A stretch of DNA of 54,815 bases, from positions 1 to 54,815 of the IMG/VR virus record IMGVR_UViG_3300046167_000572. One strand, given 5' to 3'. A program made the translations under genes and the position numbers. This document shows, in pieces, positions 13,008 through 50,400 of the stretch. The stretch is from a virus (lineage: Duplodnaviria; Caudoviricetes). The notes below the pieces were generated by a model. That model did no database searches. It saw only the letters and a list, made by a program, of their open reading frames with translations, and had not been told where the DNA came from. How positions within the stretch are numbered: position 1 is the stretch's first letter; the number at the start of each line of letters is the position of its first letter.

Positions 13008-13280
13008 TTATGACCAAATAGCTCCGCATACAGTTTGCACTAATGCGTCTTCACCTGATACATCTGTAGCAGATCCGCCGTCTTCTACAAATTTAAAAAT
13101 ATTTTTTACTGTTGTGCTTACAGTACCGTCTACGCCAGCATCGTTGCCTGTTCCTGTTAGACTGTGATTGTAAACCACTAGTACAGATGGGTGTTTTGCG
13201 TTTGATGTATTCTCGGCACTTGTATCAGAAAGAGGATAAACCTCACATCTTTGAACTGTTGTTACACTACTAATCGCCAT
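13008..13280 (-). CDS. Small tail-fibre accessory protein
   Basis: 90 aa; coupled to the end of the tail fibre gene; ends 'VQTVCGAIWS'. Confidence 0.55.
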   Translation of the reverse strand: MAISSVTTVQRCEVYPLSDTSAENTSNAKHPSVLVVYNHSLTGTGNDAGVDGTVSTTVKNIFKFVEDGGSATDVSGEDALVQTVCGAIWS

Positions 13281-16200: not shown

Positions 16201-19200
16201 ACCAGTTCTTGCATCTATACCAGTTGCATTAATTCTAAGCCTTTCTGCTTGTTCTGTATAAATTCTCACACGATCATTATTATCATCTAAGTAAAGCAAA
16301 TTAGTGTAGCTTGTACCTGAGCCTGTTGCCCATCCAACACCGCCACTATCATGGTAGCTTCTTAGTGTTTTTGTACCAGTACCATCTATAGTTACTGTAT
16401 TTGTTCCTGAAGAATTAGCAGTTATAGCACCACTAGAGATAGTTCCTGCAAAGGTGGCACTCCCATCTTGTGTAAAACTTAAAGCGTTAACTGGACTACC
16501 TAAATTTTCTGACTTAATAATTAATTTATTATTGTTGCTATTGCCTGAACCTTCATAAAAAAATCTCCACCCATACCCAGTACCATTTCCTCTATTTCCT
16601 AAATAAATAGCGGCATCTGAACCACCTAAATCATCTCCACCAATATATAAATAATCTGTAGTTGCAGGTGATGGATTAGCACCTAAATTCATACGAAACT
16701 TGCCACTAGTTGTTATAGCACCACTAGAGATAGTTCCTATGTTTTGTAGATTACGAGAACTTGTTAAAACACTTACAGTTCCAACTTTAAAATTAGATAG
16801 TCCTGAATGCCATACACCATTACCTGCACCTGTTAAGTCTGCTGTAGTTGACCAGTATGGATGCCCATCTGTACCAACGCCAAAAAATCTTGAATGAACA
16901 CCATGAACATCAAACTTCATACCAACTTGATTAGATGAAGGGCTAGTTCTATAAATAACTAATTGATCTGCAACATTGCCTTCATTTATAGTGACTTTAC
17001 CTGCAAAGGTAGCGTTAATAGGATCAAGTTTAAAAGCATTAGTTCCAGCATTATTAAAAAAGAATCCTTCACCATTTAAACTATCAAGAATCATAGCACC
17101 TGTAGAATCTGTAGAAATATTACTTGCTATGCCATTATTTGGTCTTTGTAAAATAAGTTTGTTTCCGCTTCTTACTTCAATATCCCCTGTACTTGTAATA
17201 GCACCACTAGAGATAGTTCCTACTGATAATAAATCATCAAAATACCAATTTTCATTAGCAAAGTCATAGCCAAACTCATGGCTATAATTAGCAGTACCAT
17301 CTATTTTAGGTGCTTGATAAGTTCTATCGTTTGTACTTGCCCAGCCATAGTTCATTTCATGTTTAGTGGTATGCCCTGATTCTACTGCTGGTGCTATTGT
17401 TCTTAATATTACGCCAGAGCCATTTGCTGTAAAAGCAGTAGAGTTATTAGACTGCACAAAACCGCTTGTTGTAATGTTTCCACTAGAGATAGTTCCTATG
17501 TTGGTAAGGTTTCTGCTTAAATCAAACCACTTAGTAGAACCCATATATAAATCGCCATCTGACTTAACAGCGAAAGTATCAAACCCACTTGTTTGATTAT
17601 AAATTCTAAACAGATCATCGCCATCTAATATATACCTTGCATGAAGACCTGTATTTTTAATATCAATACCTGCCTGTCCATTAGAAACATTGTTGTTAAT
17701 GGTAAGTTTTGCCACATCTTTATTAATGGCTATGTTGCCCGTAGTATCTAATTCTCCAGTAATTGAAGCACCACCGCTAGTGGTTTCAAACTTAGGCAAA
17801 TTATTGTGATATAGAGTTACTGCACCACCATTAGTAGCAACTAAATAATTTTTTGTTCCACCTTCATTTTGTAAATTAAGATTCGTACCTTGTAATCTTA
17901 AATTACCAGTTCCAACATCTCTTACATAACTATGACTACCGTCATGGTAAATTTGTAAATCTGAAGAGTTACCAAATACTGCTTTGTCACCATCGCCAAA
18001 GTTTAAGTTAGCAGATGTAGTACCACCATCAAAAGTAATAGTTCCTGTATTTGTAATGTTCTGGGATCCCATATTAAGGGCACCAGTCATGGTTCCGCCA
18101 GCTAGTGGTAATTTTGTAGCTATGCTATTTGTTACAGTTGTTGAGAAGTTTGCATCATCCCCCAGGGCAGCTGCGAGTTCGTTAAGAGTGTTAAGTGTAC
18201 CAGGTGCAGAGTCAGCTAGGTTAGCTATAGCTGTGTCTGTATATGCTGTTGTTGCAACTTTTGTAGAGTTGTCTCCTGCTGACTGAGTAGTGGCTGTTAC
18301 TGAAGATGCTATTGAACCTGCATTAACTGTTCCTGAAAGGTGAAGGTCTTTGAATCTTCCACTTGAATAGCCTAAATCAACAGCACCATTTGAAACACTA
18401 CCAGCACTTGTTACTGGGAAAATAGTACTACCAGCAAAACGTACCCCATAGCTACTTCCTGCTATATCTAGTCCGCTTGAATAACTACCAATACTTCCAA
18501 CTGTTGTATTATCCTTTCTAAAATCAACTAAAGTTCCATCGCTTGTCATTCTATCTAAAAACAATGCTGTACTTGCGTTTCTACTTATAGCAATATTGTC
18601 AGGCTTAACAGCAACACCTTCGTTACCTGTGTCGCTTGGTGGGAAAGTATTTGTAGTTCCAACTAAAAAATTGCCTGATGCGTCTATGACTACTTTAGGG
18701 CTTGATAAATTATCATTAGCATTATCAAAAGCAAAATATGTTTGTGATGCAGGTATTCCTAATCTCCAAGCCGCACTTGTTGCACTTTCAAACTTTTGGT
18801 TTATTAAACCTGCACTTGCAGTAGTTAAATGTAACTTTGCATCTATAGTAGTTTCGCCTATACCCAAAGACTCAGCACTAGCATCCCAAAAGAACTTTGC
18901 TGTTGTGCCTGTGTCTTCGTAAAAGGATATGTCTCCATTAGACGCTATTGCTAAACGCTTTCTTGCATTTCCTTCAGCAGTAACTCTAGTAAAGAAATCT
19001 AAACCACCATTAAATTCTCCTGATGTGGCACTTGTTTTAGAACCTTTAATAACACCAAAAACTCTTTGTGTTCCACTACCATCATCACCTTTAAAACTTA
19101 TTGAAGCACCTGAACCTACTGCTTGTGTTTCAGTTGATTCAAGTTGTAGGGTTGCACCAGTATTACTTACATCTGAACCACCTTTAATTGTAGCATCGCC

Positions 19201-20677
19201 TTCTACTGTAAACCCATCACTTACGACTGTTCCTGTTATGTCTATTCCGCTTGAGCTTGTGGCTAGTTTTGAAACATTATTGTGATATAAAGTTACTGCA
19301 CCATTTTGATTTGCTGTTAAATAAGCTTCATTTGTGCCATAAGATTTAAATTCAAGATTAGTTGCTTTTATTACAAGATTTCCAGTACCACTATCTTCTA
19401 TTCTGCTTTCTGTACCATTATGAAAGATTTGTAAATCATTAGAGCCACCATACATAGACTTAACATTGTCTAAATGTTGATTATGTTTGCTAGTTATAAG
19501 ATAACCATTACCGCCATCTAGCCTAAAATATTCTGCTACACCACCACTACCATCATCACTTCTAAATACAATGTCTTTATCATCTGCAAAGTTACTTATA
19601 AATAAATCACCAGTATTATTTAAAATATGAGTGTCTGTTCCATTATGTAAGAATCTTACATCTGAGCTATTACCCAATAATAATTCTTTGTTATCAAATA
19701 ATTTTATAGATTCAAGGTTTAATAGATTTTTTGAACTATCTATAACAGTTGTGCCACCTATTTGAATATCACCTCTAACAACATTTACAGAACCACCAGT
19801 AGATATAAATAATGCTGTAGATGTAGAGCCATTTCCTGATGTATTGTTATAGTCAGTCCAAAAACTCCAAGCACCATCTCTATACATTGCCGGCAGGTTC
19901 ATTAGTATTTCCTGATGTTGGGCTAGTGCCATATATTCTTAATGAATCGTCATCCCATGAAGGAATACCTATCCAAGCATTTTTAACTGAATTGTTAAAT
20001 GCAACTCTTGCATCTACACTTCCTGAAGCTGAGTTAACAGTAATAGTTTGTGATGATGTCATACCATCAGTAGTTACTGTTCCTGTAACGTCTATGCCTG
20101 AACTGGTTGTTTTAATTTTTTGCGAACCATTATGATTTAATTCAACTGCACCATCTTCACGGGCAATCATCATTATTTCACCATCTAGTTTTTGCATAAG
20201 AATACTAGAGCTTCCCTGTATGCGAAGTGTTCCAGTGCCAGTATCCTTAATATAACTATTACTACCATCATGGTAGATTTGTAAATCATTAGAAGCACCA
20301 AACTGAGCTTTAACATTGTCTGGGAAGGTTGTGCCGTTGGCATCTAGGTAGGCTTCTACTTCTTCGTTGATTGAAGATCCAACCTGGGGAAATGATTCTA
20401 ATACAGCCTTTATTAACCTTAGCTCTGCTAGGTCGCCTGTAACAAATGATCTTGCTGTGGTATCGTCTTGGGCTCTAACAACAGTAAGTGTGTTACCGCT
20501 TCTTGCAGTAACCTTAACTATTTCATTATTTGTTCCGTCATCGAATGTGCAATAAAAGAAATCACCGCCAGTAGGCGATGGTAATACTGAACCATCTGTA
20601 ACTGTAATGCTTGTTGCACTACTGTTTATTCCACTGGCAAGTGTCGTCCTTGCATTATTTTGAAAGACAATCGCCAT
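13270..20677 (-). CDS. Giant modular tail fibre (~2,470 aa) with C-terminal peptidase-S74-type intramolecular chaperone; split by one apparent indel near 19890
   Basis: ORFs 19880-20677 and 13270-19932 join if one G is removed (EPA-AMYRDG). Repeats 'IDSSRNLTNIGTISSG' and 'SNDLQIYHDG'; chaperone cleavage motif 'YSDERLKSNI' and 'GVIAQEIEKIAPELV'. Confidence 0.88.
14468..17497. repeat. Dispersed 18-bp repeat CCACTAGAGATAGTTCCT in the tail fibre gene
   Basis: Exact copies at 14861, 16430, 16721, 17204 and 17480; one-mismatch copies at 14468, 15722 and 16127; encodes GTISSG. Confidence 0.9.
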
Positions 20678-31185: not shown

Positions 31186-31558
31186 CTTGGAGTGTATCCC
31201 TGAATCGTTTCATTGCCACCTTGCTTGATGATACTGCGGTGGTTCCTTTCATTAAGCTCTCACCTACAAGAAGACATCCGTGTGAGTCCTTCTCAGGGAA
31301 GTTGCCTACATGGAATAGTATGTATGTTCTGTCTTCTACGTCTGTGATCTCGAACGTGTTGCCAAATCTTTTTGATGTATACGCCTTACATGTATATGTG
31401 CCTGTTGGTATACAGCTGACCTCTTTTTTATTTCCCCGCCACGGACGCTCTGCGATCCAAAAGACTTGATCATCTATTGTTAGTTTGCCAAGAGTTCCGT
31501 CTGGTAGATATGCGAATCTTTCAAGTATCGCCTCTGGTTCGTTTTTCTTAAAGAACAT
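31130..31558 (-). CDS. DUF5675-family protein (putative cell-wall peptidase, candidate endolysin)
   Basis: 'GTLGKL', 'ERPW.GN....SCIP.G.Y', 'ILFHVGN...DSHGCLLVG'. Confidence 0.75.
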   Translation of the reverse strand: MFFKKNEPEAILERFAYLPDGTLGKLTIDDQVFWIAERPWRGNKKEVSCIPTGTYTCKAYTSKRFGNTFEITDVEDRTYILFHVGNFPEKDSHGCLLVGESLMKGTTAVSSSKVAMKRFRDTLQDVKEFDIEVKDTTPYDWS

Positions 31559-31817
31559 AAGTAAATATTGCTCCGCCAATTCCCATGATAGAACCAATTG
31601 CAACACCGCCAATAATTCTTTCAGCCCACTTTGATTGCACGTTGTCTCTCATTTGTGATTTCTCAAGAGTTCTGAGTCTTATCTCATGATCTGAAGACTG
31701 GCTTAATGATCTTCCAACTCTTTCCTCAAGCACAGGTATGTGCCTCACAAATGAAAGTACCTCTTCCATATGTTTCTCAAGGTTTGCTATACGCATTTCT
31801 ATTCCTGATGTATCCAT
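31548..31817 (-). CDS. Coiled coil + C-terminal TM protein (XhlA-like lysis accessory)
   Basis: 'DHEIRLRTLE...KW' followed by one hydrophobic helix; probable start MDTSG. Confidence 0.55.
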   Translation of the reverse strand: MDTSGIEMRIANLEKHMEEVLSFVRHIPVLEERVGRSLSQSSDHEIRLRTLEKSQMRDNVQSKWAERIIGGVAIGSIMGIGGAIFTYVL

Positions 31818-31910
31818 TTCTTTCAGATAAAAGTTCTGTTGATGATGAAATAAAGATACAGGATCAAGACAAACATTTCTATAGATCAAAAAAATAATTG
31901 CAGATATTTG

Positions 31911-31940
31911 TTGACACTACATATCGTATGGCATTAATAT
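31911..31940 (+). promoter_or_regulatory. Sigma70-type promoter for the early island
   Basis: TTGACA (31911-31916), 18-bp spacer, TAATAT (31935-31940); A-tract upstream. Confidence 0.75.
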
Positions 31941-31980
31941 GTAATCAATGTTTACAAACAAACACCCAAAGGAGGGCAAT

Positions 31981-32358
31981 ATGACAACATTAAGACAGAC
32001 AACTAATAACGAAATACTAGCTAACGCTATGAAGCATGCAGAAGAGCCAACACTTTCAAGCATTATCCTTATGTATGTATGGGCATACAAAAGTAAACCT
32101 GCAAGCGATGCAACATATGTTGGAATTCTTGAGGCTGTATTTGAGTACATTGATAACACTCGCTGGGTTGCAGTGAGCCCATCAGAAAAATTAATTCAAT
32201 GGATAAACAGCTCTAACAAAATTGCAAACTCTGGGTATGAGAATTACAAGCAAGCAATAGACTCAGTGCTTGATCAGTATATTGGCAACAGTGGGGTTCA
32301 AGAGCATCCTATATCTTGGACCGCAACTGTAGGTAAACCTGTAAAAATACAAGACTAA
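31981..32358 (+). CDS. Hypothetical early protein (unit 1)
   Basis: SD AAGGAGG before the ATG at 31981 (MTTLRQ...); its stop TAA is part of hammerhead 1 stem I. Confidence 0.75.
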   Translation: MTTLRQTTNNEILANAMKHAEEPTLSSIILMYVWAYKSKPASDATYVGILEAVFEYIDNTRWVAVSPSEKLIQWINSSNKIANSGYENYKQAIDSVLDQYIGNSGVQEHPISWTATVGKPVKIQD

Positions 32359-32402
32359 CTGATGAGACCTGATTGGTCGAAACGCCGTGAGGCGTCTTAG
32401 TC
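32353..32402 (+). ncRNA. Type I hammerhead ribozyme 1
   Basis: GACUAA-CUGAUGA-GACC(UGAUU)GGUC-GAAA-CGCC(GUGA)GGCG-UC^UUAGUC; complete core; predicted cut after C32396. Confidence 0.93.
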
Positions 32403-32426
32403 AAACAAACAGCCAAGGAGGCAATT

Positions 32427-32846
32427 ATGACAACATTTAACGTATATCAAATAACAGTAAGCAATGAGGTCTATGACTTTGTTAATACAGATGGTGAGAG
32501 CCATACTTCTGCTGGTGAGAAGTACCCTGAGTACAAAGCAAAATTAGAAACAATGATGGGTTTTAAAGATTGGAGTGATTCCTACTTCAAACATTACACG
32601 CATGTTTGTGATGTAAAGATCGAGGGAAACAATCCTGAAGATGTTTTTATTGCTCTTAACTCTGGTTCTGATTATGCACTTGATACAGCACCATCAATCG
32701 TCAAGCATACAAACTTTCACAGCTTGAGCGTTGGTGACATTGTTGAAGATGATCTGGGTAACTTTTATTTCTGCGACAGTTATGGCTTCAAGAAGTTTAA
32801 TAACCCAAGAGTGTTACAAGAGGAGGTGATACGCAAAGCAGGCTAA
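32427..32846 (+). CDS. YodL-like domain early protein (unit 2)
   Basis: 'YQI...EDVF..LN...FHSLSVGDIV....FYFCDSYGFKK' resembles the YodL motif; SD AAGGAGG. Confidence 0.7.
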   Translation: MTTFNVYQITVSNEVYDFVNTDGESHTSAGEKYPEYKAKLETMMGFKDWSDSYFKHYTHVCDVKIEGNNPEDVFIALNSGSDYALDTAPSIVKHTNFHSLSVGDIVEDDLGNFYFCDSYGFKKFNNPRVLQEEVIRKAG

Positions 32847-32892
32847 CTGATGAGCTCTCAATGAGCGAAACTCCCTACGGGGAGTCTTAGTC
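32841..32892 (+). ncRNA. Type I hammerhead ribozyme 2
   Basis: GGCUAA-CUGAUGA-GCUC(UCAAU)GAGC-GAAA-CUCCC(UACG)GGGAG-UC^UUAGUC; predicted cut after C32886. Confidence 0.93.
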
Positions 32893-32915
32893 AAAACAAT
32901 TACTGGGAGGTAAAT

Positions 32916-33299
32916 ATGACAAAACTAAATACTAAAACTGATGCTCAAATAACTTGGGAACAAGAAATTGCTATTGCTACTAAGATTAACAGTACAGCTG
33001 ATAAGGCTGAATTGTCTTTAATCAATCCTATTAGATTCTTGAAATATGTTGAGCTTAAAAGATCATTCCATGATCAAGCAGAAGATATGGCTAAATGGAT
33101 CACTAAAGAGCAGTCCAAGGATCATGGACTGGTCCAATCCTTTGCCTACTTCATGGACAAGGGCTACACCATTAACAAGCCTGACAGATATGAGTACAGA
33201 TCAGCGGTCTTCAATGATCTTGCTGAGGCTATCAAGAATGATTCTGAGTACAACATATATGACATAGTTCGTAGATGGGATATGTACTATCACTCATAG
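32916..33299 (+). CDS. Hypothetical early protein (unit 3)
   Basis: 127-aa ORF with SD GGGAGGT. Confidence 0.75.
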   Translation: MTKLNTKTDAQITWEQEIAIATKINSTADKAELSLINPIRFLKYVELKRSFHDQAEDMAKWITKEQSKDHGLVQSFAYFMDKGYTINKPDRYEYRSAVFNDLAEAIKNDSEYNIYDIVRRWDMYYHS

Positions 33300-33365
33300 G
33301 CTAACTGATGAGACCTGATTGGTCGAAACCTTCTCTTTTCCCCGCGAATCGAGGAGGTCTTAGTC
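33299..33365 (+). ncRNA. Type I hammerhead ribozyme 3
   Basis: GGCUAA-CUGAUGA-GACC(UGAUU)GGUC-GAAA-CCUUCUC(15-nt loop)GAGGAGG-UC^UUAGUC; predicted cut after C33359. Confidence 0.9.
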
Positions 33366-33386
33366 AAACAAACCGTAGGAGGGAAT

Positions 33387-33599
33387 ATGACAACAATAGA
33401 AATGAAAATGAAAAGATCAATAGAAGACATGGAGCAAATCTTAGTAGATGCAAAAGTTACTACTTGGGATGCTTTAGAGAATCTATATGATCACATGAGC
33501 CAGTATGCAATTGATCCTGACGGAGATTTTGAGGGCGTTGTTAGGCAAAAGTACAGAACGTATTTATTTGAACAAAGAAAAAATGGAGGGCAATCATAA
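33387..33599 (+). CDS. Hypothetical early protein (unit 4)
   Basis: 70-aa ORF with SD AGGAGG. Confidence 0.7.
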   Translation: MTTIEMKMKRSIEDMEQILVDAKVTTWDALENLYDHMSQYAIDPDGDFEGVVRQKYRTYLFEQRKNGGQS

Positions 33600-33781
33600 T
33601 GGATAACTACACAGCTGTAGGTATTGCAGAGGGATTCATTCCAGCTGATCATGAGGATCAAGTCAGGGAGGCATGGCAACATTTAGTTGACACTGGTCTG
33701 GCTTGGCAACTTCAGGGCTGGTTTGGTAGAACTGCAATGGGTTTAATAGAACAAGGTTTAATAACACAAGGAGGTGAATAA
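33599..33781 (+). CDS. Small hypothetical protein
   Basis: 60 aa; 'AWQHLVDTGLAWQLQGWFGRTA..LIE.G' resembles a recurrent small phage protein; SD GGAGG. Confidence 0.75.
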   Translation: MDNYTAVGIAEGFIPADHEDQVREAWQHLVDTGLAWQLQGWFGRTAMGLIEQGLITQGGE

Positions 33782-34017
33782 TGAGCCTAAATAATCAGAA
33801 CTCTAAATTTGTTTCTTACTTTCTAGATTTTTATCGTGATAGTGGAGATGACATAGCACCCTTAGAGGCGTGCAAGTATTTAAAAATGTATAAAACAAAT
33901 TTTCCTAATCTATGGAGCGGTGGAGACAGCCTAGACAGAGAAAAGGTTTATGAATTATTTTTAATGGGTAGAGCAGATGCTATTGCCAAAGAACACAAAC
34001 AAATGGAGGTGAAATAA
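33781..34017 (+). CDS. Hypothetical early protein
   Basis: TAATG coupling; SD AAGGAGGTG. Confidence 0.7.
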   Translation: MSLNNQNSKFVSYFLDFYRDSGDDIAPLEACKYLKMYKTNFPNLWSGGDSLDREKVYELFLMGRADAIAKEHKQMEVK

Positions 34018-34307
34018 TGACTAATTGGATAACTAAACAAGAACTTGAAACAGCTAAAACCATGGCTTCTGAAATATTTCAAGATTTTAATAGAGTCTAT
34101 TGCTATCAAGAGGGTGAACAAACATGGACAGAGATTGATATAAACGGAAAGTTTTTTGATGTTGAGTGCTTTGATGATGACATGGATAAACCAAGAACTG
34201 ACACATATTGCTCTATATATCCTGTATACCCTACAGAGTGCGGAACGTGGAGAGAAACAGATGGTTCAAAATGGATAAGATTATTTACAAACAAGGAGGT
34301 GAAATAA
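34017..34307 (+). CDS. Hypothetical early protein
   Basis: TAATG coupling; SD GGAGGTG. Confidence 0.7.
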   Translation: MTNWITKQELETAKTMASEIFQDFNRVYCYQEGEQTWTEIDINGKFFDVECFDDDMDKPRTDTYCSIYPVYPTECGTWRETDGSKWIRLFTNKEVK

Positions 34308-34807
34308 TGAGTGCGTATTTATGTAATGCAGATCATATAGGTGAGATGAGCAAGTTCTTTGCTAATGGTAGTGTGCCAATGGCTAGTAGTGAGCTTGTGA
34401 CTCATGCCTATAACATGGTGACAAGGGAGAAGATTTCTTTTTCTTCCCCGCAAGAGGCGGCTGAAATATTAGCCAGAGAGAATATCAAAAGCTTACAGGC
34501 TAGATATCCAGATAGCTGGAAGGGTTTCTTTACATGGAACCCTGAAGGCAAGGATGATGAGTTTGATGAGAGCATGATCCTGCTCTTTGTTAATCAATGC
34601 CAAGCCAAAGCTAAGGGATATCCCAAGGTTAATAAGAAACAGCTTTACGGCATGATCAACTGCTACAGGTATCAAGCCTGCGAAGATGAGAGCTGGGTCC
34701 AGTCTGATGCCTATTGGCTGACACAAAGCCTAAAGAATATTGTGTCAAGCAAGCTCATTGGTGATGTTGATATGTGGGAGTTTAGACCAGAGGAGGACGT
34801 AGCATGA
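34307..34807 (+). CDS. Hypothetical early protein (start MSAYLC)
   Basis: TAATG coupling; SD AAGGAGGTG; 'LARENIKSLQARYPD...CYRYQACE..W..SDA'. Confidence 0.75.
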   Translation: MSAYLCNADHIGEMSKFFANGSVPMASSELVTHAYNMVTREKISFSSPQEAAEILARENIKSLQARYPDSWKGFFTWNPEGKDDEFDESMILLFVNQCQAKAKGYPKVNKKQLYGMINCYRYQACEDESWVQSDAYWLTQSLKNIVSSKLIGDVDMWEFRPEEDVA

Positions 34808-35085
34808 TTATTGATGGAAGTTTTGAATTAGACTTTGTTGACAAAGGAACACCACATAATGGCATGCGTACTGACTATGATGGCTTTAAACCTTTCTGGG
34901 AAGTTCAGTGTCTAAGCAATAGCAATCTATGGTCAGGGAGCAAGCAAGACTGTATTGAATGGATGGCTGATCATTATGTGGATCACTTTAATGAGAACTC
35001 AAAAACTGAAGAGCAAGCTCTAAAAAAATCTTTAGCTTGGGTCAATAAGTGTTTGAAAAAAGCTGAAGCAGAGGAGGTGTCATGA
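34804..35085 (+). CDS. Hypothetical early protein
   Basis: ATGA overlap; SD GAGGAGG. Confidence 0.7.
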
Positions 35086-35228
35086 CTTGTTCAGAATGTG
35101 GCGGCAACTCCAGAGTTGTAGATGTACGCAAGTACGTTGACGGATCAGTCAACAAACGCAGACGAGAATGTCTGGAATGTAAAAGAAGGTTTACTACATA
35201 CGAGGAGGAATATAAAAAGAAAAAGTAA
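35082..35228 (+). CDS. Stand-alone NrdR-like zinc ribbon (48 aa); not in ORF track
   Basis: Hand translation [48 protein letters not shown] matches the NrdR N-terminal pattern CxxC...V.D.R...RRR.CxxC..RFTT.E; SD GGAGGTG. Confidence 0.8.
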
Positions 35229-35242
35229 ACAAATTAAAAGAG

Positions 35243-35270
35243 AAGCGGGGTAATTACCTCGCTTTTTTTT
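35243..35270 (+). terminator. Rho-independent terminator closing the early island
   Basis: AGCGGGGT-AATT-ACCTCGCT followed by a T run. Confidence 0.85.
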
Positions 35271-35497
35271 GCCTTTTTTAAATGTCAAGACTGTTATTGA
35301 TTTTTCTTTTTGGTAGACTAGTAGGTTCCATGTTAATAAAAGAAGCCATAATAAAAATAGCTAGAGATCTGAAATCAGAGAACGGCTTTCACTATCAAGA
35401 AAAACTAATTCTTGATAACTATCCTAATGATCTGACAGAATCAGATATTAAAAAAGCAATGATGGCTGTTGCTTCAGTATCAGACGTGTTGCTTGAT

Positions 35498-35695
35498 CTA
35501 AAGTAAATCTATTTCTTTTATTGAATCTTCGTAGTTGTTTCCAAGTTTTGACCACTCAGCATCTCCACTCATTTTGTATACCCATCCGCTTGCCTTGTGC
35601 TTTCTGCCATGAGGGTTGCTTGGTATCCATCTGATCATAACTCTGTCGTGTCCATTTTCTAGAAACTTTTTTTGAAGCTCTTCTTTTTTGCTCAT
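35498..35695 (-). CDS. Hypothetical protein
   Basis: ORF 35498-35743; probable start MSKKEE. Confidence 0.5.
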   Translation of the reverse strand: MSKKEELQKKFLENGHDRVMIRWIPSNPHGRKHKASGWVYKMSGDAEWSKLGNNYEDSIKEIDLL

Positions 35696-35874
35696 ATCAG
35701 TGTATGGTTTTTTTACCGTCCTTATGATAAACGAAAACCTCACTTAATTCACCCATAAGATCTAATCCTACTTCGTGCAGTGCCTCTTCCGCCTCCTCCC
35801 AGTTTGGAGCAACTATGATTAATTCTTGTGATGTGTCATCAATGTTGGTAAGTGAACCAAGGAATATTTTCATA

Positions 35875-36156
35875 TTACCATTTAACTTTGTTTGCCCAGT
35901 AAGCGGCAGACATCTTTCCTCTTGATATATTTTTGGCGTGTCTTGCTTTGAATGATTTCTTTCTGGCTTTGTTTTTTGCGGTGGTTGGATTTTTTCCCGC
36001 CCCGCTCACGCCCTGCTGACCAAACCTAATTGTTTTTACTTTGGTTCCTTGCTTGGCTACTACAACGTGTGATTTAGTTTTATGACTTGGTGTTCGTTTA
36101 GGTTTATTAAAACCACTAACGCCAGCTCTTGTAAGTCTTGAATCTTTTTTAGACAT
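35875..36156 (-). CDS. Small basic protein
   Basis: 'GFNKPKRTPSH..KSH.V.AK.G...K.IRFGQQG...RKKSFKARH...SAAYWA.K.KW' resembles a recurrent marine phage protein. Confidence 0.75.
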   Translation of the reverse strand: MSKKDSRLTRAGVSGFNKPKRTPSHKTKSHVVVAKQGTKVKTIRFGQQGVSGAGKNPTTAKNKARKKSFKARHAKNISRGKMSAAYWANKVKW

Positions 36157-36398
36157 TATCTTTTCTTTCCTTTGTGCAAACCATGTCTTGCGTGTTGTTT
36201 GCCCTTGGCGGTAGCTTGTCTTTTCTTTTTGTTTGCCTGTGCTAGCTTGCTTCTTCCTTTGGCTGTGGACTTTAGTTTCTTAATTGTTTTAGCTGGGGCG
36301 TAGACCTCTCCAGTAGTTGAGGACTTCTTTCCGCTTGGAGTTCTCCATTTCTGCTTGGTCCATCTTTTTAAAGACTTTTGTTGTTTCTTAAGTGGCAT
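36156..36398 (-). CDS. Small basic protein (DUF5872-like C-terminal portion)
   Basis: 'QKSLKRWTKQKW.T.SGK.S..TGE.Y.P'. Confidence 0.65.
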   Translation of the reverse strand: MPLKKQQKSLKRWTKQKWRTPSGKKSSTTGEVYAPAKTIKKLKSTAKGRSKLAQANKKKRQATAKGKQHARHGLHKGKKR

Positions 36399-40314: not shown

Positions 40315-40932
40315 ATGACAAAACAAAAAATATACACAGCACTATCTAATGTGCAAAAACATATGCTAGCAAACCCTATTGCAAAAGAAGGTGTGAATAG
40401 CTATCAAAAATATAAATACAGGGGTATAGATCAGATCATACAATCTTTTTCTAAACCACTACACGACAATAATGTTCTTACGTTGGTTCAACCAGACTTG
40501 AATGTATCAACTAAGTTTTTAGATGATGGTAGGTCAACACTAACAAGGGTTGTTGGAACTTTGAGGTTTGTTTGTACTGATGACGGGTCTTATGTAGACA
40601 GATCATATGTTGGTCATAGCAAATCACAACAGGGAAAAGATCTGGAATCTGCAAGATCTTTTGCTTACAGAAATGCTTTACTTGAAACATTCTGCGTACC
40701 GTTTGAGGGTATAGAAGAGCCAGAGTTAGAGGGTGTTGATAAATCCTCACAACCTGAACAGGATCAAGATGAGTTTTCTGTAATAGAGGACTTCAAAAAA
40801 GAACTCAAATCTGCTGAAACTAAAGAACAGGCACAACAAATATTTAAAAACTATGACAAGGTTGCAGAGCTTAGTAATGATAAAGAAACAAGAGTGCAAT
40901 TAAATCTTATATATAGCAAGGCGGTGAAATAA
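40315..40932 (+). CDS. ERF-family single-strand annealing protein
   Basis: 'IAKEG.N..QKYKYRGID', 'DGS...S.....S...KD...A.SFAY.NALL.TF..P'. Confidence 0.85.
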   Translation: MTKQKIYTALSNVQKHMLANPIAKEGVNSYQKYKYRGIDQIIQSFSKPLHDNNVLTLVQPDLNVSTKFLDDGRSTLTRVVGTLRFVCTDDGSYVDRSYVGHSKSQQGKDLESARSFAYRNALLETFCVPFEGIEEPELEGVDKSSQPEQDQDEFSVIEDFKKELKSAETKEQAQQIFKNYDKVAELSNDKETRVQLNLIYSKAVK

Positions 40933-41879
40933 TGGTGCAGATAAAACAAGGCACCCCTGCTTGGCATGATCAAAGATCTAACAGGATTACTGGGACAAGA
41001 CTTCCAAAGGCTGTAGATGAATGTATCTGGACAAAGGGAGATCAGTGGGAGGCACTAGGAAGAGATATCTTTAGAGAGGCAAACCATTTAACACAGGACC
41101 CTTTTAATCAATTTGCTATGTTTGCAATGAAGCACGGTACTGACAGTGAGCCCTTAGCCTTAAAAACTTTGGCTGGCATGGGATATAAAATAACACAGCC
41201 GTCTTTTGTTGTTCACCCTGAACACAATTGGATGGGCATATCACCAGACGGAATAATGCTTAAGGGTAGGAATGGATCTATATCAGCGGTAGAAATAAAA
41301 TGTCCGCAATCTAAGCCATGTACAAACGTAAAGGAACAGAAAAGAAACTACTGGCATCAAATGCAAATGGCTATGGAATGCATGGACATTGATGAAATGC
41401 TTTTCTTTCAATGGTATAGCGATACAGAATATTTTGAGCAATGGATATCAAGAGACACCAAGTGGGCTCAAACATATATACCTAAAGCACAAAAGTTTAT
41501 GGACTGGTACAACGAAAAATCTAAGGATCTTACTTATATTGAAAGATGGTCAGAAGATAAAGATGAACCAGGAATTAATTATAAAACGGTTGAAGATACT
41601 GATGAAACATCAGAGCTTGCAACTGTATTAAAAGAACTAAAGCAGCTCAAAGACAAGTCTTCTGTCCTAGATCTTAGGAAAAAAGAATTGTCTGCTATGT
41701 TGATAAAAAAACATGGCGGGGCGTTTGGTACGTCTTCAGTGAAATGTCACATGACACAAGCTAGAGGCAGAATTAACTATAGTCGACTGGTCAAGGATCA
41801 GAACATTGAAAGAGATGTGTTAGAAGAATACAGATCTGAAGGTGATTCAAGGATTTATACCAAATTACTAGAGGAATAA
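40932..41879 (+). CDS. YqaJ / lambda-type exonuclease
   Basis: 'QGT..W...R..RITGT', 'M.HG...EP.A', 'SPDG', 'EIKCP', 'Y..QMQ..M'. Confidence 0.9.
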   Translation: MVQIKQGTPAWHDQRSNRITGTRLPKAVDECIWTKGDQWEALGRDIFREANHLTQDPFNQFAMFAMKHGTDSEPLALKTLAGMGYKITQPSFVVHPEHNWMGISPDGIMLKGRNGSISAVEIKCPQSKPCTNVKEQKRNYWHQMQMAMECMDIDEMLFFQWYSDTEYFEQWISRDTKWAQTYIPKAQKFMDWYNEKSKDLTYIERWSEDKDEPGINYKTVEDTDETSELATVLKELKQLKDKSSVLDLRKKELSAMLIKKHGGAFGTSSVKCHMTQARGRINYSRLVKDQNIERDVLEEYRSEGDSRIYTKLLEE

Positions 41880-44360: not shown

Positions 44361-44419
44361 AGCGGGGTTGGTTATTTTTCATACCTCCCTCAATAGTATG
44401 TTTACTAATCCCGCTTTTT
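44361..44419 (+). terminator. Extended hairpin at the convergence of int and the polyvalent gene; probable terminator
   Basis: AGCGGGGTTGGT pairs with ACTAATCCCGCT; inner stem CATAC/GTATG; followed by a T run. Confidence 0.55.
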
Positions 44420-47400
44420 CTTCTTCTTAATTCTTTCTAAACCGTCTTGTAGGATCTTATTATATTTAAGATGTATTTTGTGCTTATCTTCGTCTATCTG
44501 ATCTGACAGTCTTGAATACCTTGCGTAATCTTTTTCTCGCAAATTCATAATTGTCTTTTCTCTTTGACCTAGTTTTCTAAGTTCTTTGTCTGCCGATTTC
44601 ACAGCCTCTCCTAGTTTAAGATATTCTGAATCAAATCCTGTTCTTTCTACATAGTCTCTTAATGCAGCTTTATTGTTATCTTTTTTATAGTTTGTAAACT
44701 CTCCAACTTTTTGAGAAATAATATCTTTGTTTTTATAAAAGTTGCTTGCGTCAACATAGTCCATGGGGTCTGCTGTTAGGACTCTAACGAATGGAACCTC
44801 GTTTAATTCAATGCTTTCGTTTGTTCCTGTTGTAAGGTTGTTATATACCTTTCCAGATATTGATGCTGTTCTTTCAGCCATGGTATACATGCCACCAAGA
44901 TAGGACTGCAAGTAGAACTTTATTTTGTCTGGGCTCCAGTCAACCATTCCTTTGTCAAACTTACCGCCACCAGTAGCACTGTTAACCATCATTGTAAATT
45001 CTCTATAGAACTCATTAGTGTTTCTAAGCTTTCTTGATGATTGTGGGGTTTCTGCTGTTCCTGGAAACTGTTCTTTATAAACTGGAGCTCCTGTCCATTT
45101 TTCATTTACCCTGGATTCATACAATGGCTTAGCTACTGATGGAACAATTGTTTTTATAAAGTCTATTCCTTGATCCTGAGAATAGCCTATGCCCACTGGG
45201 GAGAATGCCCCAGATACTATTCCAGCCATATCCTTGCCCATTTCTACTGGTGTTCTTTTTTGATATCCAAGTATTGGTTTACTTGCCACCTCGGTTCCCA
45301 TTCTTCCTAAGTTATAGAATATGTTATACCCATATGGCAAAGGAATAGCTAAAGCAAATGGCTTGCCATTAACGGTATATCTTCTGCTGTATTTATTAAA
45401 TTTAACCTCGCCATCCTGAAACTTTACGCCAGGTATCGGGATAACCATAAATCTTTCTTTTTCGTGATCTGGTATCTTATCAATAAGAAGTTTTCCATCC
45501 TCGTCCTCATCTGATATTAACATTGAGTACATCTGCACAAGTGCACCAAGACCAGTAAGACCGCCGATTATATTTTTTGCGGACTTTGAAACCCCGCTCC
45601 AAACAACTTTTCCATTCTGAAATCCTATTGGGTTCATTCCTCTAAACATGTTTACAGAACCCTGAACAGATGCGTTTGCAAAAATATAAAATGCGTTAAC
45701 TACAGGTCCAAGTTTTCCAGATCTGTTAAAGTTTATAGTTAAGTTCTTTGCCAGAACTGCGGCATCATCGAAGTCTTGTTTGGATGCTTTCTTTGTACCG
45801 CCAGCGGCGTTAATGTATTCTTTAAAGACAGCAAACCTTGCAGTGTTTTCAATAGCATTGTTTACATTTTCAACCATTTTAAATGTTGAGTTATAAACCT
45901 TCTTGGCGTTTACCTTTCCCTTTCCAGAGTGAACTAAAGAAAGCTCTTCCATGGCTTTTGCTATTTGATCTATGTCTTTGGCATTCACATAACCAGTCTG
46001 ACCACCAAACTTCTGGAACGCATCAAAGAGTGCAAATGTTTCTGGATCTTTTTCTTGTAAGCTTTTAGTTACATAGCCATCCTTAAGCTGCCTCATTGTT
46101 TTGGCTATATTGTTTGGCTTAAAAGCTTTTGCAAGATCTAGGTTCTGTGCTCTTCCCCCCTCTATCTCTTGTTCTTTTAATAAATTAAAGTACCCAGTTT
46201 GATAATCCCTAAAGAAGTTTCCAACAATAAATTCTGGAGCGAGTGATGTATATAGGCTGGAAAGTGTTCCTGTAAGTCCTCTCATTACACCAATTGACCA
46301 ATGCATACTGTTATTTCCCCAAGCATCTAATCCCTTTGCTAGTCTCTCGTCTCTTATAACAATAAACTTTTGTTTGCCATTTTCCTTAAATCCTATTTTA
46401 GATTCTTTGCCATCCCACTCGTGTGGTCTTTCGTTTCTTTTTACACCCCTGACCTGCCATAGCTTCTTATCTGGGAATGTATTAACAAGCTCCGCCAAGG
46501 ATTTGTCTATGAAGTTCTTTTCTCCCCGAACCACAGCCGACTGCCTTCTTATAACAGCCTGTTCTAAAGGTGGTCCTGACTCAGAGGTCCTTCCCTTAGC
46601 CTCCATTACCTCTCTTCCAAACACACTTATTCCGCCGCCAGTTGCTCTTGGTGAGCTGTCTTCAATAGTTTCAACAGAGAATCCAACTAGCGGCACATAG
46701 TATCTATATGAGCTATCCCAGTCCTCCAGGGTTTGCTCATCCACAAGATCTTGATCTCTGTATATATTTAATGTGTCCTGTTGATATGATTCAAGTAGCT
46801 TGAATGCATTTAAGAGGTTCTTACCTTTTTCATTATTTGCACTTGCCTTGTTTGTCTTTTCATCAAACTTAATTCCAATAGACTCGAGAGTCTCAATCGC
46901 TTTGTCTGTTTTTATTCCAGATCCGCTGTCTTGGTATTTTGCTAATACATTTTTTCTTTTAGTGATCTTTCCTTTAAGGACAGTTCTTTTGCTTTTTTCC
47001 GTTTCAGCAAGAAGTTCAGCCTCAAGCTCGGGTATTTCTTTGTTGTATTTTTCATTGATCTTTTTATTTCTTTCTGGGGCGTGCAGGTTTTTAAGAAAAT
47101 CGTTGAACTCTTCTCTTGATATATTGACGCTATTTAAGAACTCAGATATTTCTGTGGTTGCCTCCACAGCCTTGTCCATTCCGTACTTAACCTTTCCATG
47201 ATACACATCTGTTTTTCTTACAACAGACAGTCTCCTCATTTCTTTTGGGCTAACTAATTTTCCTAGCTTTTCTTCAAAAGCCTTTAGCCTGTCTAGTTTA
47301 TCTACAGCCTGTTCTTGAAAAGTTGAGAATGTTTGAAATAGTTGAGACGCATCGTTGGATGTCATTGTCTCGTAAATATCGAATTGAGATTCTTCTTCTG

Positions 47401-50400
47401 GTAGAACCTTTTTAGATAGGGTTGGGGGTGTTAGGTCTGCTTGTCCTGTGTAGTTTGAGTTGATTGATTCATCTCTTTTCCATCCGTATTTTTCTGAGAA
47501 GGTTTGGTCGACTTCATCAATTCTCTGTTTGAGGTCCCTGACGATATTCTCAACCCTTCCCTGAAGATCGGGTGAGATTCCTCTAATACTCTCAATGTAA
47601 CTTTCGCCATTTTTATTTTTACTCCAGTTGTTAGAAAGATATCCTTCGCTAGACGCAAATTGTCCAAGATCAACATCTTCGTTATTTTCAAATTGTACAC
47701 CATTTAAAACATTGTTTACAATCTTTTTAAATTTTAAGTTTGGTATGTCAAGGTATGAAAAGTTAATTAGCCTTGCACCATTTGCTGTCCCTATAGGGTT
47801 ATAGTCCTTGATTCCTGACTCTTTTTCCATTGCCTCTGCAAGCATCTGTGTTTCGTTTTCAGTTAATGGTCTTCCTATATTAATATCCATTCCATTTAAC
47901 TTAGTCTTAGCTATTCCCTTTTGGAAGAATGGTTTGTGATACCCAATACCGTCCTGCTTTAAAAGTATTCCAAGGGCTGCCGAGTATGCTTTTGCTAGGT
48001 CCTCTGACGCTGGTTCTAGTTTTGCAAATTCCGTTTTTGGATCTGCTTTGTATATCTTTGTTAAAGCTATTTGTGTTTGTGATCCTGGGCTGACTTTACC
48101 CTCAAAGAATCCTGGTGCCTCGACTATTCCAGGCGATAGTATCCCCAGAGTATTGGCAACAAGGTCTGATCCGCTTTCATCTTGTAAAGCTTTCGATATT
48201 GCAACATGGTATTCCTGCAACTGCTCGTATGGTGCATTAAACATCTCAGGCATATGCCCTGATGTTCTTCCTGGTATAGACTCCCAGCTTATTTGACCTA
48301 ATGATTTTTCTAGTGCATTGGCATAATTAAACCCAGCAGCATTTACATCGGTCCCTTCATCTCTAGCCTTTTGAGCCGTCCATATAGCAGCCTGTACCTG
48401 TTGGGGTTCCCAACCAAGCTGATTAGATATTTTTTGTATTTCATTTTCTACGAATGAGTATTGTGCTGGCGTTGGTGCGTCAGTATCAAAGTTAAATGCC
48501 CTGACCATCCAAACATCTACGGTTACTCCCTGTGTCCTGGACGGATCTATAACCCTCATAATATTGTTATAAAATTCGTTGGTTTTTCTTCCCCCCCAGT
48601 CCTTGCCCTCAAAGACATTAATTATCTTTTCGCTCATTGCTTTAGGAAATCTTCCAGTCTTTACTGTTTCTCCAGCAATATATTGATAGTAAGCCTGTAG
48701 TGCATAGTTAAAGTTTGCCTCCACTGGGGTTCCTGGTGATGTTATTGCAATAACCTGTGCAAGTTTGTCTGCGTTTTCTTTGTTGTTGTTTGTTATATCT
48801 AGTAGTGCTTGACCACTTTGCTCATACCAGAATCTTTGAGAAACGCCTTCCTTGGCTAGACCTCTCATTTTTCGCCTGAGTGCACCTACTTTTTGTTTGG
48901 AGTCCATTCCCTCTGGAGCTCCAACAACCTGACCAGTTGTACCTACTTGTTTTAGTTCTGATATTTCAGGTCGAACACCGTCCCTGTCTGTAGATTCTTC
49001 CTGTCCAACCAGTCTTGCACTGGTTTCTGAGACGATATCGCCTGATCTATCATCTTCAACGTCTGTTCTTCTGTCTGAAACCTCAATACTTCGCTGGGCA
49101 CTGGGTGTTTGAAAAGCAAGTTGTACTCTCTCAGCTTTCTTTGTAGTTCCGTCAATTGAAATTGCATCGTTTAGTTCCTCTATTAATTTTAGTGCTGTTG
49201 GAGCCTTCTCTTCTAGCAGTGATCTATTAGTATAATATAATTCATGAAGCTGACCAAACACCTCTGCTTTAATCATTCTTTCTTGAGCTGGGTTCATACT
49301 TCCATTCATTCCAATCATTTCATTAAATGGATATCTAAGCATGTTGCCGTCATAGTATCTGCCCTTCTGACCCTCATTGAACATTCTGAGTGCCTCTTTC
49401 ATTATCTCCCCGCCAGAGTTGTCCGCAATATCTAGAGTGCCTGTGCCTTCGTTGTAGCTAAAGTTTGGTAAATTAAATAAAGGAGACCCTGCTGTTGCTG
49501 GTTGAAGTATATTAAGATTATCGCTAGGAGATCTTGCAATTGTAAAGTCTATATGATGTCCCATTTCATGGGCTATGGTTGATCTTAAATTTAACTTAGA
49601 TCCTAACTTGTTTGTAAATTTTAACTCTGATATTCCAGATATAGGAGAGAAGGATACGCCCCTGAGTGTCGGCATGTAGATTCCATATGAGGCGTCAAAT
49701 GTTTTATATCTATTGTCTTTGGTATGAACGCCAACAAAATCAAGATCTGTAAATATATCAAGTGGCATTCCTGACTTGGTTAAATCTATAATTCCTTTAG
49801 AAGCGTTTATACCCTCTTCGTTATTTAAGTCTCTAAACCTATAATACTTTTGTTCTCCAGACGGGTCCTCTAATAATTTTTCTTCAAAGGTTCTTGCATC
49901 TATTATTAAACTTTTTGTTAGATCTAATTCTTTTTGATCATATGTATCATTTCTTATCTGGTCTATATTTAAAGGTTGGGTTGAGGGGCAGGTCTGTCTC
50001 AAGAAGATTTATATTTGCGTCAAGCCTTTGAGTTATTATTGGAGATAGATTTAAATCTATTTCAGAAGTTTGTGGTCCCGCAACTTTCTTTTTAAAAACT
50101 CCTGAAAGAGGGTCATCAAAATTAAACTCTTCTTGTTTTTTTGCTGGAAACTTAAGCTGAAGAGATTCCATATATTCATCTGGCTGAGAAACTTCTCCCT
50201 CTTCTCCAACCACTAAAGGCTTTCTGAAATCTATAAAAGGTTGATTAAAGTATTCTAATGCAATTACCTCATCTGCGGTCCATCCCTTGCCATTGGCGTT
50301 TGGATCTAAAAGTATTCTTGACGCACTATCAATTGCGTTGTAGTTAAGGGTTAAATTATTAACATTGTTATTAAAGTTTTCTATAAATAATTCTAGTTCA

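Follow-up and report, generated by a model that had tools for sequence, protein, structure and literature searches.

Three candidate hammerhead ribozymes between small genes of an uncultured marine-type phage

Why would a tailed phage set three copies of one self-cleaving RNA motif between its consecutive small genes, and what would become of a message that carried them? The question is raised by the virus record IMGVR_UViG_3300046167_000572 (Duplodnaviria; Caudoviricetes), a genome of 54,815 bp that CheckV rates as complete and that was analyzed in full (hereafter, the window). A preliminary description of this DNA had proposed that three consecutive intergenic gaps each hold a full hammerhead core closed by a 6-bp stem I, and every sequence detail of that proposal holds. 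The answer that we consider probable is that three active type I hammerheads lie on a single ∼3.3 kb, 10-gene operon RNA with a host-type promoter and that they would cut out genes 1 to 3 as separate mRNAs. The motif, its covariation, its placement, and the likeness of the leaders are observations, from which we infer cleavage and its effects on translation and stability.

The three copies and their subclass

All three copies lie on the plus strand. Copy 1 (32353..32402) pairs GACUAA with UUAGUC in stem I and continues with CUGAUGA, stem II (GACC/GGUC), GAAA, and stem III (CGCC/GGCG) capped by a GUGA loop. Copy 2 (32841..32892) has a different stem II (GCUC/GAGC) and a stem III (CUCCC/GGGAG) with a UACG loop. 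Copy 3 (33299..33365) repeats the stem II of copy 1 and has a long stem III (CCUUCUC/GAGGAGG) interrupted by an internal loop. Stem I is 6 bp in all three, GACUAA or GGCUAA pairing with UUAGUC, and stem II has 4 bp and a loop of 5 nucleotides (nt). Stem III consists of 4, 5, or 7 pairs past the A15.1-U16.1 pair, closes on a GUGA, UACG, or larger loop, and is followed by U and C. The CUGAUGA and GAAA core elements and the U-C cleavage dinucleotide are in register in 3/3 copies. Since stems II and III are closed by loops and stem I is open in all three, the topology is that of type I. The cuts are predicted to fall after the C at 32396 (32396|32397), 32886 (32886|32887), and 33359 (33359|33360). 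The copies are spaced by 488 and 458 nt, with a single gene between each pair.

The pattern CTGATGA..GAAA..TCTTAG has three matches in the window and none in any of 100 dinucleotide shuffles, so chance is no explanation for three such motifs. A generic hammerhead scan of both strands of the window returned these three copies only. When each copy was folded alone, the minimum-energy structure was the hammerhead (−16.4, −18.3, and −20.4 kcal/mol for copies 1, 2, and 3), and copy 1 retained the whole hammerhead fold at minimum energy with 30-40 nt of flanking sequence. No pseudoknot between loop II and the flanks was found by eye in the three copies.

Two further features of stem III should be mentioned. 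In copy 3, window positions 33329-33357 hold the internal stretch UUUUCCCCGCGAAUCG, which is unchanged in relatives though the flanking stem has covaried from CCUUCUC/GAGGAGG to CCAUCU/AGAUGG. This conserved unpaired insert in helix III could be a protein site or a tertiary contact. Separately, the 5′ strand of stem III was considered as an element that sequesters the Shine-Dalgarno site before cleavage. The two are complementary in copies 2 and 3, but many common stem IIIs of the family are not of this kind, and the idea was rejected as a general rule.

The subclass to which the copies belong was surveyed in IMG/VR with a scan that demanded the core and the same stem I while leaving stems II and III free. 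The subclass, recognizable by its CUAA/UUAG stem I, is present in at least 118 IMG/VR contigs. A search of relatives for the same gene-ribozyme-gene arrays, as proposed with the preliminary description, was fruitful. A generic scan of the 118 listed loci found 209 copies in 105 loci, with one copy in 57 loci and two to nine in 48. These counts per locus are lower bounds, the fetched loci often being short pieces. Among the loci listed, the median spacing of arrayed copies is ∼520 nt. The densest array among the loci fetched is L118:2808-6441 (+), where nine hammerheads of the same subclass, spaced ∼360-520 nt apart, lie on one strand within 3.6 kb; L042 also has nine copies, across 7.3 kb. Among 185,579 species genomes, the exact stem I and core pattern is present in only 4 contigs (two from Daejeonella and one each from metagenome-assembled genomes of an uncultured Bacteroidetes and a Thermodesulfobacteriota). 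Set against the at least 118 viral contigs, this number suggests that the subclass resides mainly in free phage genomes.

The preliminary description had also held that the stems covary, with structure kept where sequence is not. The stem sequences are as it gave them, and the family bears the claim out. Across 95 distinct aligned copies, the core varies only at position 7 (U in 84, C in 6, and A in 5), a variation allowed by the hammerhead rules. Position 17 is C in 91 copies and A in 4, although G was barred beforehand by the search patterns and this column is therefore no independent test. Pairing holds in 98.5% of the alignment cells; the figure is 74.4% for shuffles and does not exceed 36.3% when the partners are slid. 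Both sides have changed in 12/15 pairs, and the covariation score is 0.621 versus 0.146 in shuffles. It should be noted that the 95-copy set was selected with some pairing demanded. A test set free of this bias was therefore assembled from 114 unique raw pattern hits, for which no complementarity was asked of stems II and III. All three free positions of stem II were paired in 106/114 hits and all three positions of stem III in 108/114; in shuffles of the raw hits, full pairing was found in 183/2280 and 143/2280 cases, respectively.

A covariance model, R1, was built from the 95 family members, with copies 1 and 2 in the training set and copy 3 outside it. R1 scores the three copies at 76.6, 75.4, and 61.4 bits, respectively, with an expectation value (E) of 1.3e-14 for copy 3, and its runner-up in the window reaches 12.9 bits (E about 1). 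Taken together, the intact core and the family-wide covariation strongly support the identity of the copies as hammerheads. As judged from its sequences, the group is a real, selected hammerhead subclass.

Conservation also extends beyond the pairs. Three positions of loop II favor U (86/95), A (80/95), and U (72/95), and an A stands beside each end of stem I in 86/95 and 81/95 copies. These flanking A's co-vary with the type of loop II (mutual information 0.47 and 0.56), a relation that is confounded by subfamilies. In one subgroup (for example, L042:7040-7108, L070:5269-5337, and L082:6561-6629), a GUAA or GGAA tetraloop replaces the U-rich pentaloop of stem II, and C and U, not A and A, are found beside the ends of stem I. 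The difference between this subgroup and the pentaloop copies suggests two alternative designs of a tertiary contact.

Operon anatomy and predicted processing

The distances from the predicted cuts to the next ATG are 30, 29, and 27 nt for copies 1, 2, and 3, in agreement with the 27-30 nt of the preliminary description, and the A/C-rich leader and strong Shine-Dalgarno site that it placed after each cut are also present, the latter as a GGAGG-type site. On the other side, the cuts fall 38-60 nt past the upstream stop codon, so the upstream message would remain complete. In the leader after cut 1 (32397..32426, plus strand), the 3′ strand of stem I is joined by an A/C-rich stretch and by a GGAGG Shine-Dalgarno site. 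This leader is near-identical to that of gene 1, and the leader and first codons of gene 2 almost match those that the promoter gives gene 1.

The ten small genes, all on the plus strand, can be delimited as follows. A sigma-70-type promoter-like site (TTGACA, 18 nt, TAATAT; 31911..31940, plus strand) has 10/12 matches and is the presumed start of the operon. Of 11 such sites in 31400-36200 it is the best, but shuffles would be expected to give as many, and the site is thus a consensus match only. The block from it to the start of gene 1 is conserved in relatives, whereas the body of gene 1 is not. A transcript from it would give gene 1 a leader of ∼34 nt. Gene 1 (31981..32358) encodes 125 amino acids (aa) with no family match, and the 5′ strand of stem I in ribozyme 1 ends in the TAA stop of this gene (32356-32358). 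Gene 2 (32427..32846; 139 aa) is weakly YodL-like (PF14191, 23.7 bits versus a cut-off of 24), and stem I of ribozyme 2 contains its TAA stop. Gene 3 (32916..33299; 127 aa, function unknown) has relatives in six other listed loci and a TAG stop whose final base is the one that opens stem I of ribozyme 3. Genes 4 to 10 (33387..35228) follow with overlapping stop and start codons and no ribozyme between them. Within this group, gene 5 matches DUF7417, and gene 10 (35082-35228) encodes a 48-aa NrdR-like zinc ribbon (PF22811, E 4.2e-14) with no further domain. An intrinsic-terminator-like hairpin of 15 pairs followed by a T run (35237..35270, plus strand) is the presumed end of the operon. The preliminary description had assigned one hammerhead to each gene junction. 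This stands for the first three of the nine junctions (1|2, 2|3, and 3|4) and fails for the other six (33599, 33781, 34017, 34304, 34804, and 35082), where stop and start overlap and no ribozyme is found. Its designation of the unit as an early operon is a plausible guess from the gene order and layout.

The same placement recurs across the family. For 212 copies from the loci listed, a downstream open reading frame (ORF) of at least 40 codons begins within 120 nt on the same strand in 195, and 158 of these 195 have a Shine-Dalgarno-like site. The distance from cut to start peaks at 23-32 nt, with 27 the commonest value. An upstream ORF is present for 192 copies, and in 150 of these the stop codon of that ORF falls within or next to the ribozyme. 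The rarest base in ten leader columns of the family is G. The ribozymes are followed by small genes (median 97 aa) of great diversity, whose 167 unique proteins fall into 112 clusters. Few of these proteins match a Pfam family; among the families matched are DUF932, the ArdC N-terminal domain, pentapeptide repeats, a single-subunit RNA polymerase, DNA polymerase A, DNA ligase, and a YodL-like family.

One family member is available in culture. Flavobacterium phage vB_FspP_elemoA_7-9A (MT497017.1) carries one copy of the subclass (56.9 bits, E 3e-13) amid a series of small genes located upstream of those for Erf and the exonuclease, with the predicted cut 29 nt before the next ATG and without a Shine-Dalgarno site. 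This phage provides a cultured handle for the functional predictions. In the same record, a 35-aa "hypothetical protein" is annotated antisense to the hammerhead (L122:5975-6082), and its match recurs in nine records of the phage group. This ORF probably reflects a false gene prediction across an RNA element.

Based on this anatomy, we propose the following course of events. During transcription of each junction, the hairpins of stems II and III would form first and the 6-bp stem I would close next, upon which the RNA would cut itself after C17 at 32396|32397, 32886|32887, and 33359|33360. Genes 1, 2, and 3 would be released as single mRNAs whose 3′ ends consist of two ribozyme hairpins and a 2′,3′-cyclic phosphate, and genes 4-10 would stay together as one translationally coupled mRNA. 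Each downstream RNA would begin with a 5′-OH and a G-poor leader of 27-30 nt with a strong Shine-Dalgarno site, like the leader that the promoter gives gene 1. With a common leader, each cassette would have the same translation start region regardless of its upstream neighbor, and the short unstructured leader may act as an insulator of that region. Lastly, a ribosome that terminates inside stem I would keep the ribozyme unfolded until its departure, which could couple cutting to translation.

The phage that carries this operon is a temperate-type tailed phage, marine-type and uncultured. PHROG matches include a large terminase, a portal or adaptor, an internal virion protein, and tail fibers, as well as a DnaB-like helicase, an O-like replication initiator, an integrase, and the Erf-like annealing protein and RecE-like exonuclease encoded at 40315-41879. 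The closest cultured terminase, that of Roseobacter phage CRP-7, is 35.6% identical, which places the phage far from cultured ones. A blastn comparison of 31900-34900 with cultured phages gave no match. No phage RNA polymerase was found among the part of the window ORFs that was scanned (20 large ORFs and 10 operon ORFs), nor was an RNA ligase among the same 30. Two very large ORFs lie elsewhere on the minus strand. The first (13270-19932; 2220 aa) has tail-fiber-like parts, and the second (44405-50002; 1865 aa) matches only PHROGs of unknown function (phrog_14770 and phrog_616).

Weighing the processing reading

Processing into single-gene mRNAs plausibly fits the anatomy described above and is a hypothesis already published for clustered prophage hammerheads. 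Several points weigh against it. First, all three copies score under the curated Rfam thresholds. At gathering scores, Rfam reported nothing in the whole window. In the permissive E-value mode, copy 1 matched RF00163 (Hammerhead_1) at 27.1 bits (E 0.0013, cut-off 34) and copies 2 and 3 gave no RF00163 report; copies 1 and 3 matched RF03152 (the RAGATH-1 hammerhead) at 23.4 and 23.1 bits (cut-off 56.3), and copy 2 matched RF02275 (HH9) at 17.3 bits (cut-off 52). The Rfam search proposed with the preliminary description was therefore positive as to sub-threshold hammerhead matches and negative at gathering scores. The RF00163 gathering cut-off is one model's threshold and not a defining trait of the ribozyme class. 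Second, copies 2 and 3, when folded with 30-40 nt of flanking sequence, retain stems II and III at minimum energy but form other weak pairings in place of stem I. Third, the tertiary contact that natural hammerheads require at cellular Mg2+ is merely hinted at by the co-variation of loop II with the stem I flanks, given its confounding by subfamilies. Fourth, with a ribozyme at 3/9 junctions only, processing is not required for expression of the operon as such. Fifth, cleavage is a prediction, and the RNA contigs all lie outside the ribozymes. Of nine sequencing runs listed, five are recorded as RNA, all with small shares; the contigs mapped from four of the nine cover parts of gene 1 (31956-32164), gene 2 (32621-32826), and gene 3 (32910-33060, 32918-33068, and 33038-33297), plus 33383-33415; none covers or bridges a ribozyme, no position stood out as one where many molecules start or stop, and as contigs break at repeats and cannot show RNA ends, they are neutral on cleavage. 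Finally, the fate of 5′-OH ends would differ with the host, and any stabilization by such an end is likewise host-dependent.

A second explanation, compatible with processing, concerns the unit on which selection acts. It holds that this unit is a portable module in which a ribozyme is joined to a leader and a start codon. As RNA, the module would insulate the expression of a gene from its neighbors; as DNA, it would offer a homologous joint of ∼80-100 nt for the swap, gain, and loss of small genes. We regard this as possible, though tentatively so. As compared across loci, the ribozyme and leader modules are conserved joints between unrelated gene cassettes, which is an addition to the published picture. 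Among 124 module pairs from different loci with an identity of 90% or more, both flanks are shared in 44, the downstream flank only in 36, the upstream flank only in 9, and neither flank in 35; the pairs are not independent and stem from related contigs, which tempers their force. There are 34 module clusters with at least two members; several upstream contexts (two or more) are seen in 18 of them and several downstream contexts in 11. This excess of upstream contexts suggests that the ribozyme tends to travel with the gene behind it. A single case illustrates the exchange: L028 has the end of gene 2, next a module 99% identical to the third of the window, and after it a different gene.

Breakpoints of homology point in the same direction. 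Long blocks shared with relatives start 1-3 nt from the 5′ edge of each ribozyme (32350, 32840, and 33298), and short blocks stop a few codons into the next gene. The genes punctuated by ribozymes vary more among relatives than genes 5 and 8, and the phage encodes the Erf-like and RecE-like recombination proteins noted above. However, the ribozyme-free junctions at 33599, 33781, 34017, 34304, and 34804 are also mosaic breakpoints, so exchange needs no ribozyme; the sixth, at 35082, is not a homology breakpoint, unlike the other five. With five of the six being breakpoints, the whole operon appears to be a mosaic of single-gene cassettes. The conservation of the modules could also follow from RNA function alone, with breakpoints merely tolerated at their edges. 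A four-gamete test for crossovers between stems II and III gave only two quartets, both between one-base variants, and is weak. Our literature search found no paper on hammerhead modules as mosaic or recombination joints.

If the module does serve in both roles, which we offer as a conjecture, it would be a natural plug-and-play adaptor. It would supply a uniform 5′ end and ribosome-binding region for the gene behind, two-frame stop codons for the gene in front, and a DNA joint for the exchange, duplication, and deletion of accessory or host-takeover-type genes. Ribozyme arrays would then mark and help create a hypervariable cassette zone, somewhat like attC sites in integrons but by way of general homologous recombination.

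A third explanation, which we judge to be unlikely, is that the ribozymes form a dampening or timing device. Here, cleavage would destabilize or uncouple the message upstream or downstream of the cut, and genes 1-3 would be expressed briefly or at levels other than those of genes 4-10. The model for such a device is the glmS ribozyme, whose 5′-OH product is degraded by RNase J1 in Bacillus. The restriction of the ribozymes to the promoter-proximal part of the operon is in keeping with this idea, and a 2019 review, in its available text, states that processing could yield transcripts differing in stability or translation efficiency (PMC6765202). On the other hand, the strong Shine-Dalgarno site and G-poor leader after each cut look built for efficient downstream translation and not for disposal, and the stable hairpins at the 3′ end of the upstream product point to protection.

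The remaining two explanations fare poorly. In one, which is highly improbable, the excised gene-length RNAs would be ligated into circles or spliced. Genes 2 and 3 do each lie between two ribozymes, the 5′-OH and 2′,3′-cyclic phosphate ends would suit RtcB-type ligases or the reverse reaction, and the possibility was raised by Perreault et al. (PMC3088659); yet the portion of that paper at hand states that no circular or spliced products were detected, the 30 scanned ORFs include no RNA ligase, and the RNA contigs contain no joints, though their cover is too thin to count. To the other, that the copies are non-catalytic structured intergenic repeats or chance look-alikes, the sub-threshold Rfam scores and the predicted status of cleavage lend something, but we give it almost no weight, as none of the 100 shuffles reached even three matches and as invariant catalytic positions with stems that covary over hundreds of copies are expected from selection for catalysis and not of a hairpin repeat.

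Relation to known systems

The preliminary description had likened the array to the RNase III sites between the early genes of T7, where intergenic cuts yield separate mRNAs with hairpin 3′ ends. Those sites are long irregular hairpins that are cut by a host protein enzyme, leaving a 5′-phosphate and a 3′-OH. Here, the RNA is predicted to cut itself, leaving a 5′-OH and a 2′,3′-cyclic phosphate; the junctions fold into a three-way hammerhead and not into a long imperfect hairpin of the RNase III type, and the phages are unrelated. As this phage has an integrase, and no phage RNA polymerase was found among the 20 large ORFs scanned, the comparison with T7 is an analogy only. A second likeness is to RiboJ, an engineered element that descends from a type III satellite-RNA hammerhead and carries an additional hairpin. 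RiboJ similarly places a hammerhead just upstream of a ribosome-binding site and provides a fixed 5′ leader whatever lies upstream, whereas the copies described here are natural, of type I, and repeated along an operon. Among the curated families, RAGATH-1 (RF03152) has similar stem I and core sequences. Its defining 5′ hairpin does not align convincingly and is absent here, and the copies fall short of the 56.3 bits that the family demands.

Hammerheads at comparable positions have been described in other viruses. According to the parts available to us of a 2026 paper, which gives type I as the usual form in bacteria and phages, the hammerheads of fungal double-stranded and single-stranded RNA viruses are also of type I with a long helix III and fill the intergenic untranslated region just upstream of a start codon (PMC13725137). 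Their 5′ ends at the cut were confirmed in vivo by rapid amplification of cDNA ends, and a role in cap-independent translation initiation was proposed. They differ in residing in RNA genomes of eukaryotic hosts and, in one example, in a cut ∼7 nt from the start codon. Closer to the present case is HHphage of haloviruses HF1 and HF2, as summarized in the accessible text of Perreault et al. (PMC3088659), which stands directly upstream of the gene that opens an early polycistronic transcript and for which a 5′ end was mapped within 3 nt of the cleavage site. In contrast to the array described here, HHphage occurs singly, is a structural variant dependent on high salt, and lies 13 nt from the start codon as compared to 27-30 nt, and its host is an archaeon.

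The closest precedent is the clustered hammerheads that Perreault et al. reported in 2011 (PMC3088659). As described in the text of that paper that was available, several hammerheads flank single prophage genes whose identities are not constant, and the authors suggested that long phage transcripts may be turned by processing into operon-length or single-gene mRNAs. Tandem triple arrays from Agrobacterium tumefaciens, Azorhizobium caulinodans, and Clostridium scindens were published; three such arrays were cleaved in vitro, and one in Escherichia coli, to the expected products. A 2019 review, as far as its available text goes, repeats the processing idea with its purpose still to be defined (PMC6765202), and our literature search found no paper that settles the role of clustered phage hammerheads, nor does the accessible part of the 2026 paper settle it (PMC13725137). 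The window matches the 2011 arrangement in having several same-orientation hammerheads between small changeable phage genes, and the same function has been proposed for both. The novelty implied by the preliminary description is thus lost, as both the clustering and the single-gene mRNA proposal were already in print. The present array differs in that it belongs to an uncultured marine-type phage genome and not to a bacterial chromosome, and in that all of its copies are of one type I subclass with a CUAA/UUAG stem I, a distinction drawn from the text of the 2011 paper only and from that in part. With more than one copy in the same orientation (at least two define a cluster), spacings of a few hundred bases, single small genes between, and a complete phage genome around it, the array is a further example of the arrangement published in 2011 and not a new kind. 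It is a very clean one, with three copies in one promoter-to-terminator unit beside six ribozyme-free junctions, and it adds an anatomy that can be tested: an upstream stop inside stem I, a fixed leader of ∼27 nt, a match to the promoter-proximal leader, and modules conserved between unrelated genes.

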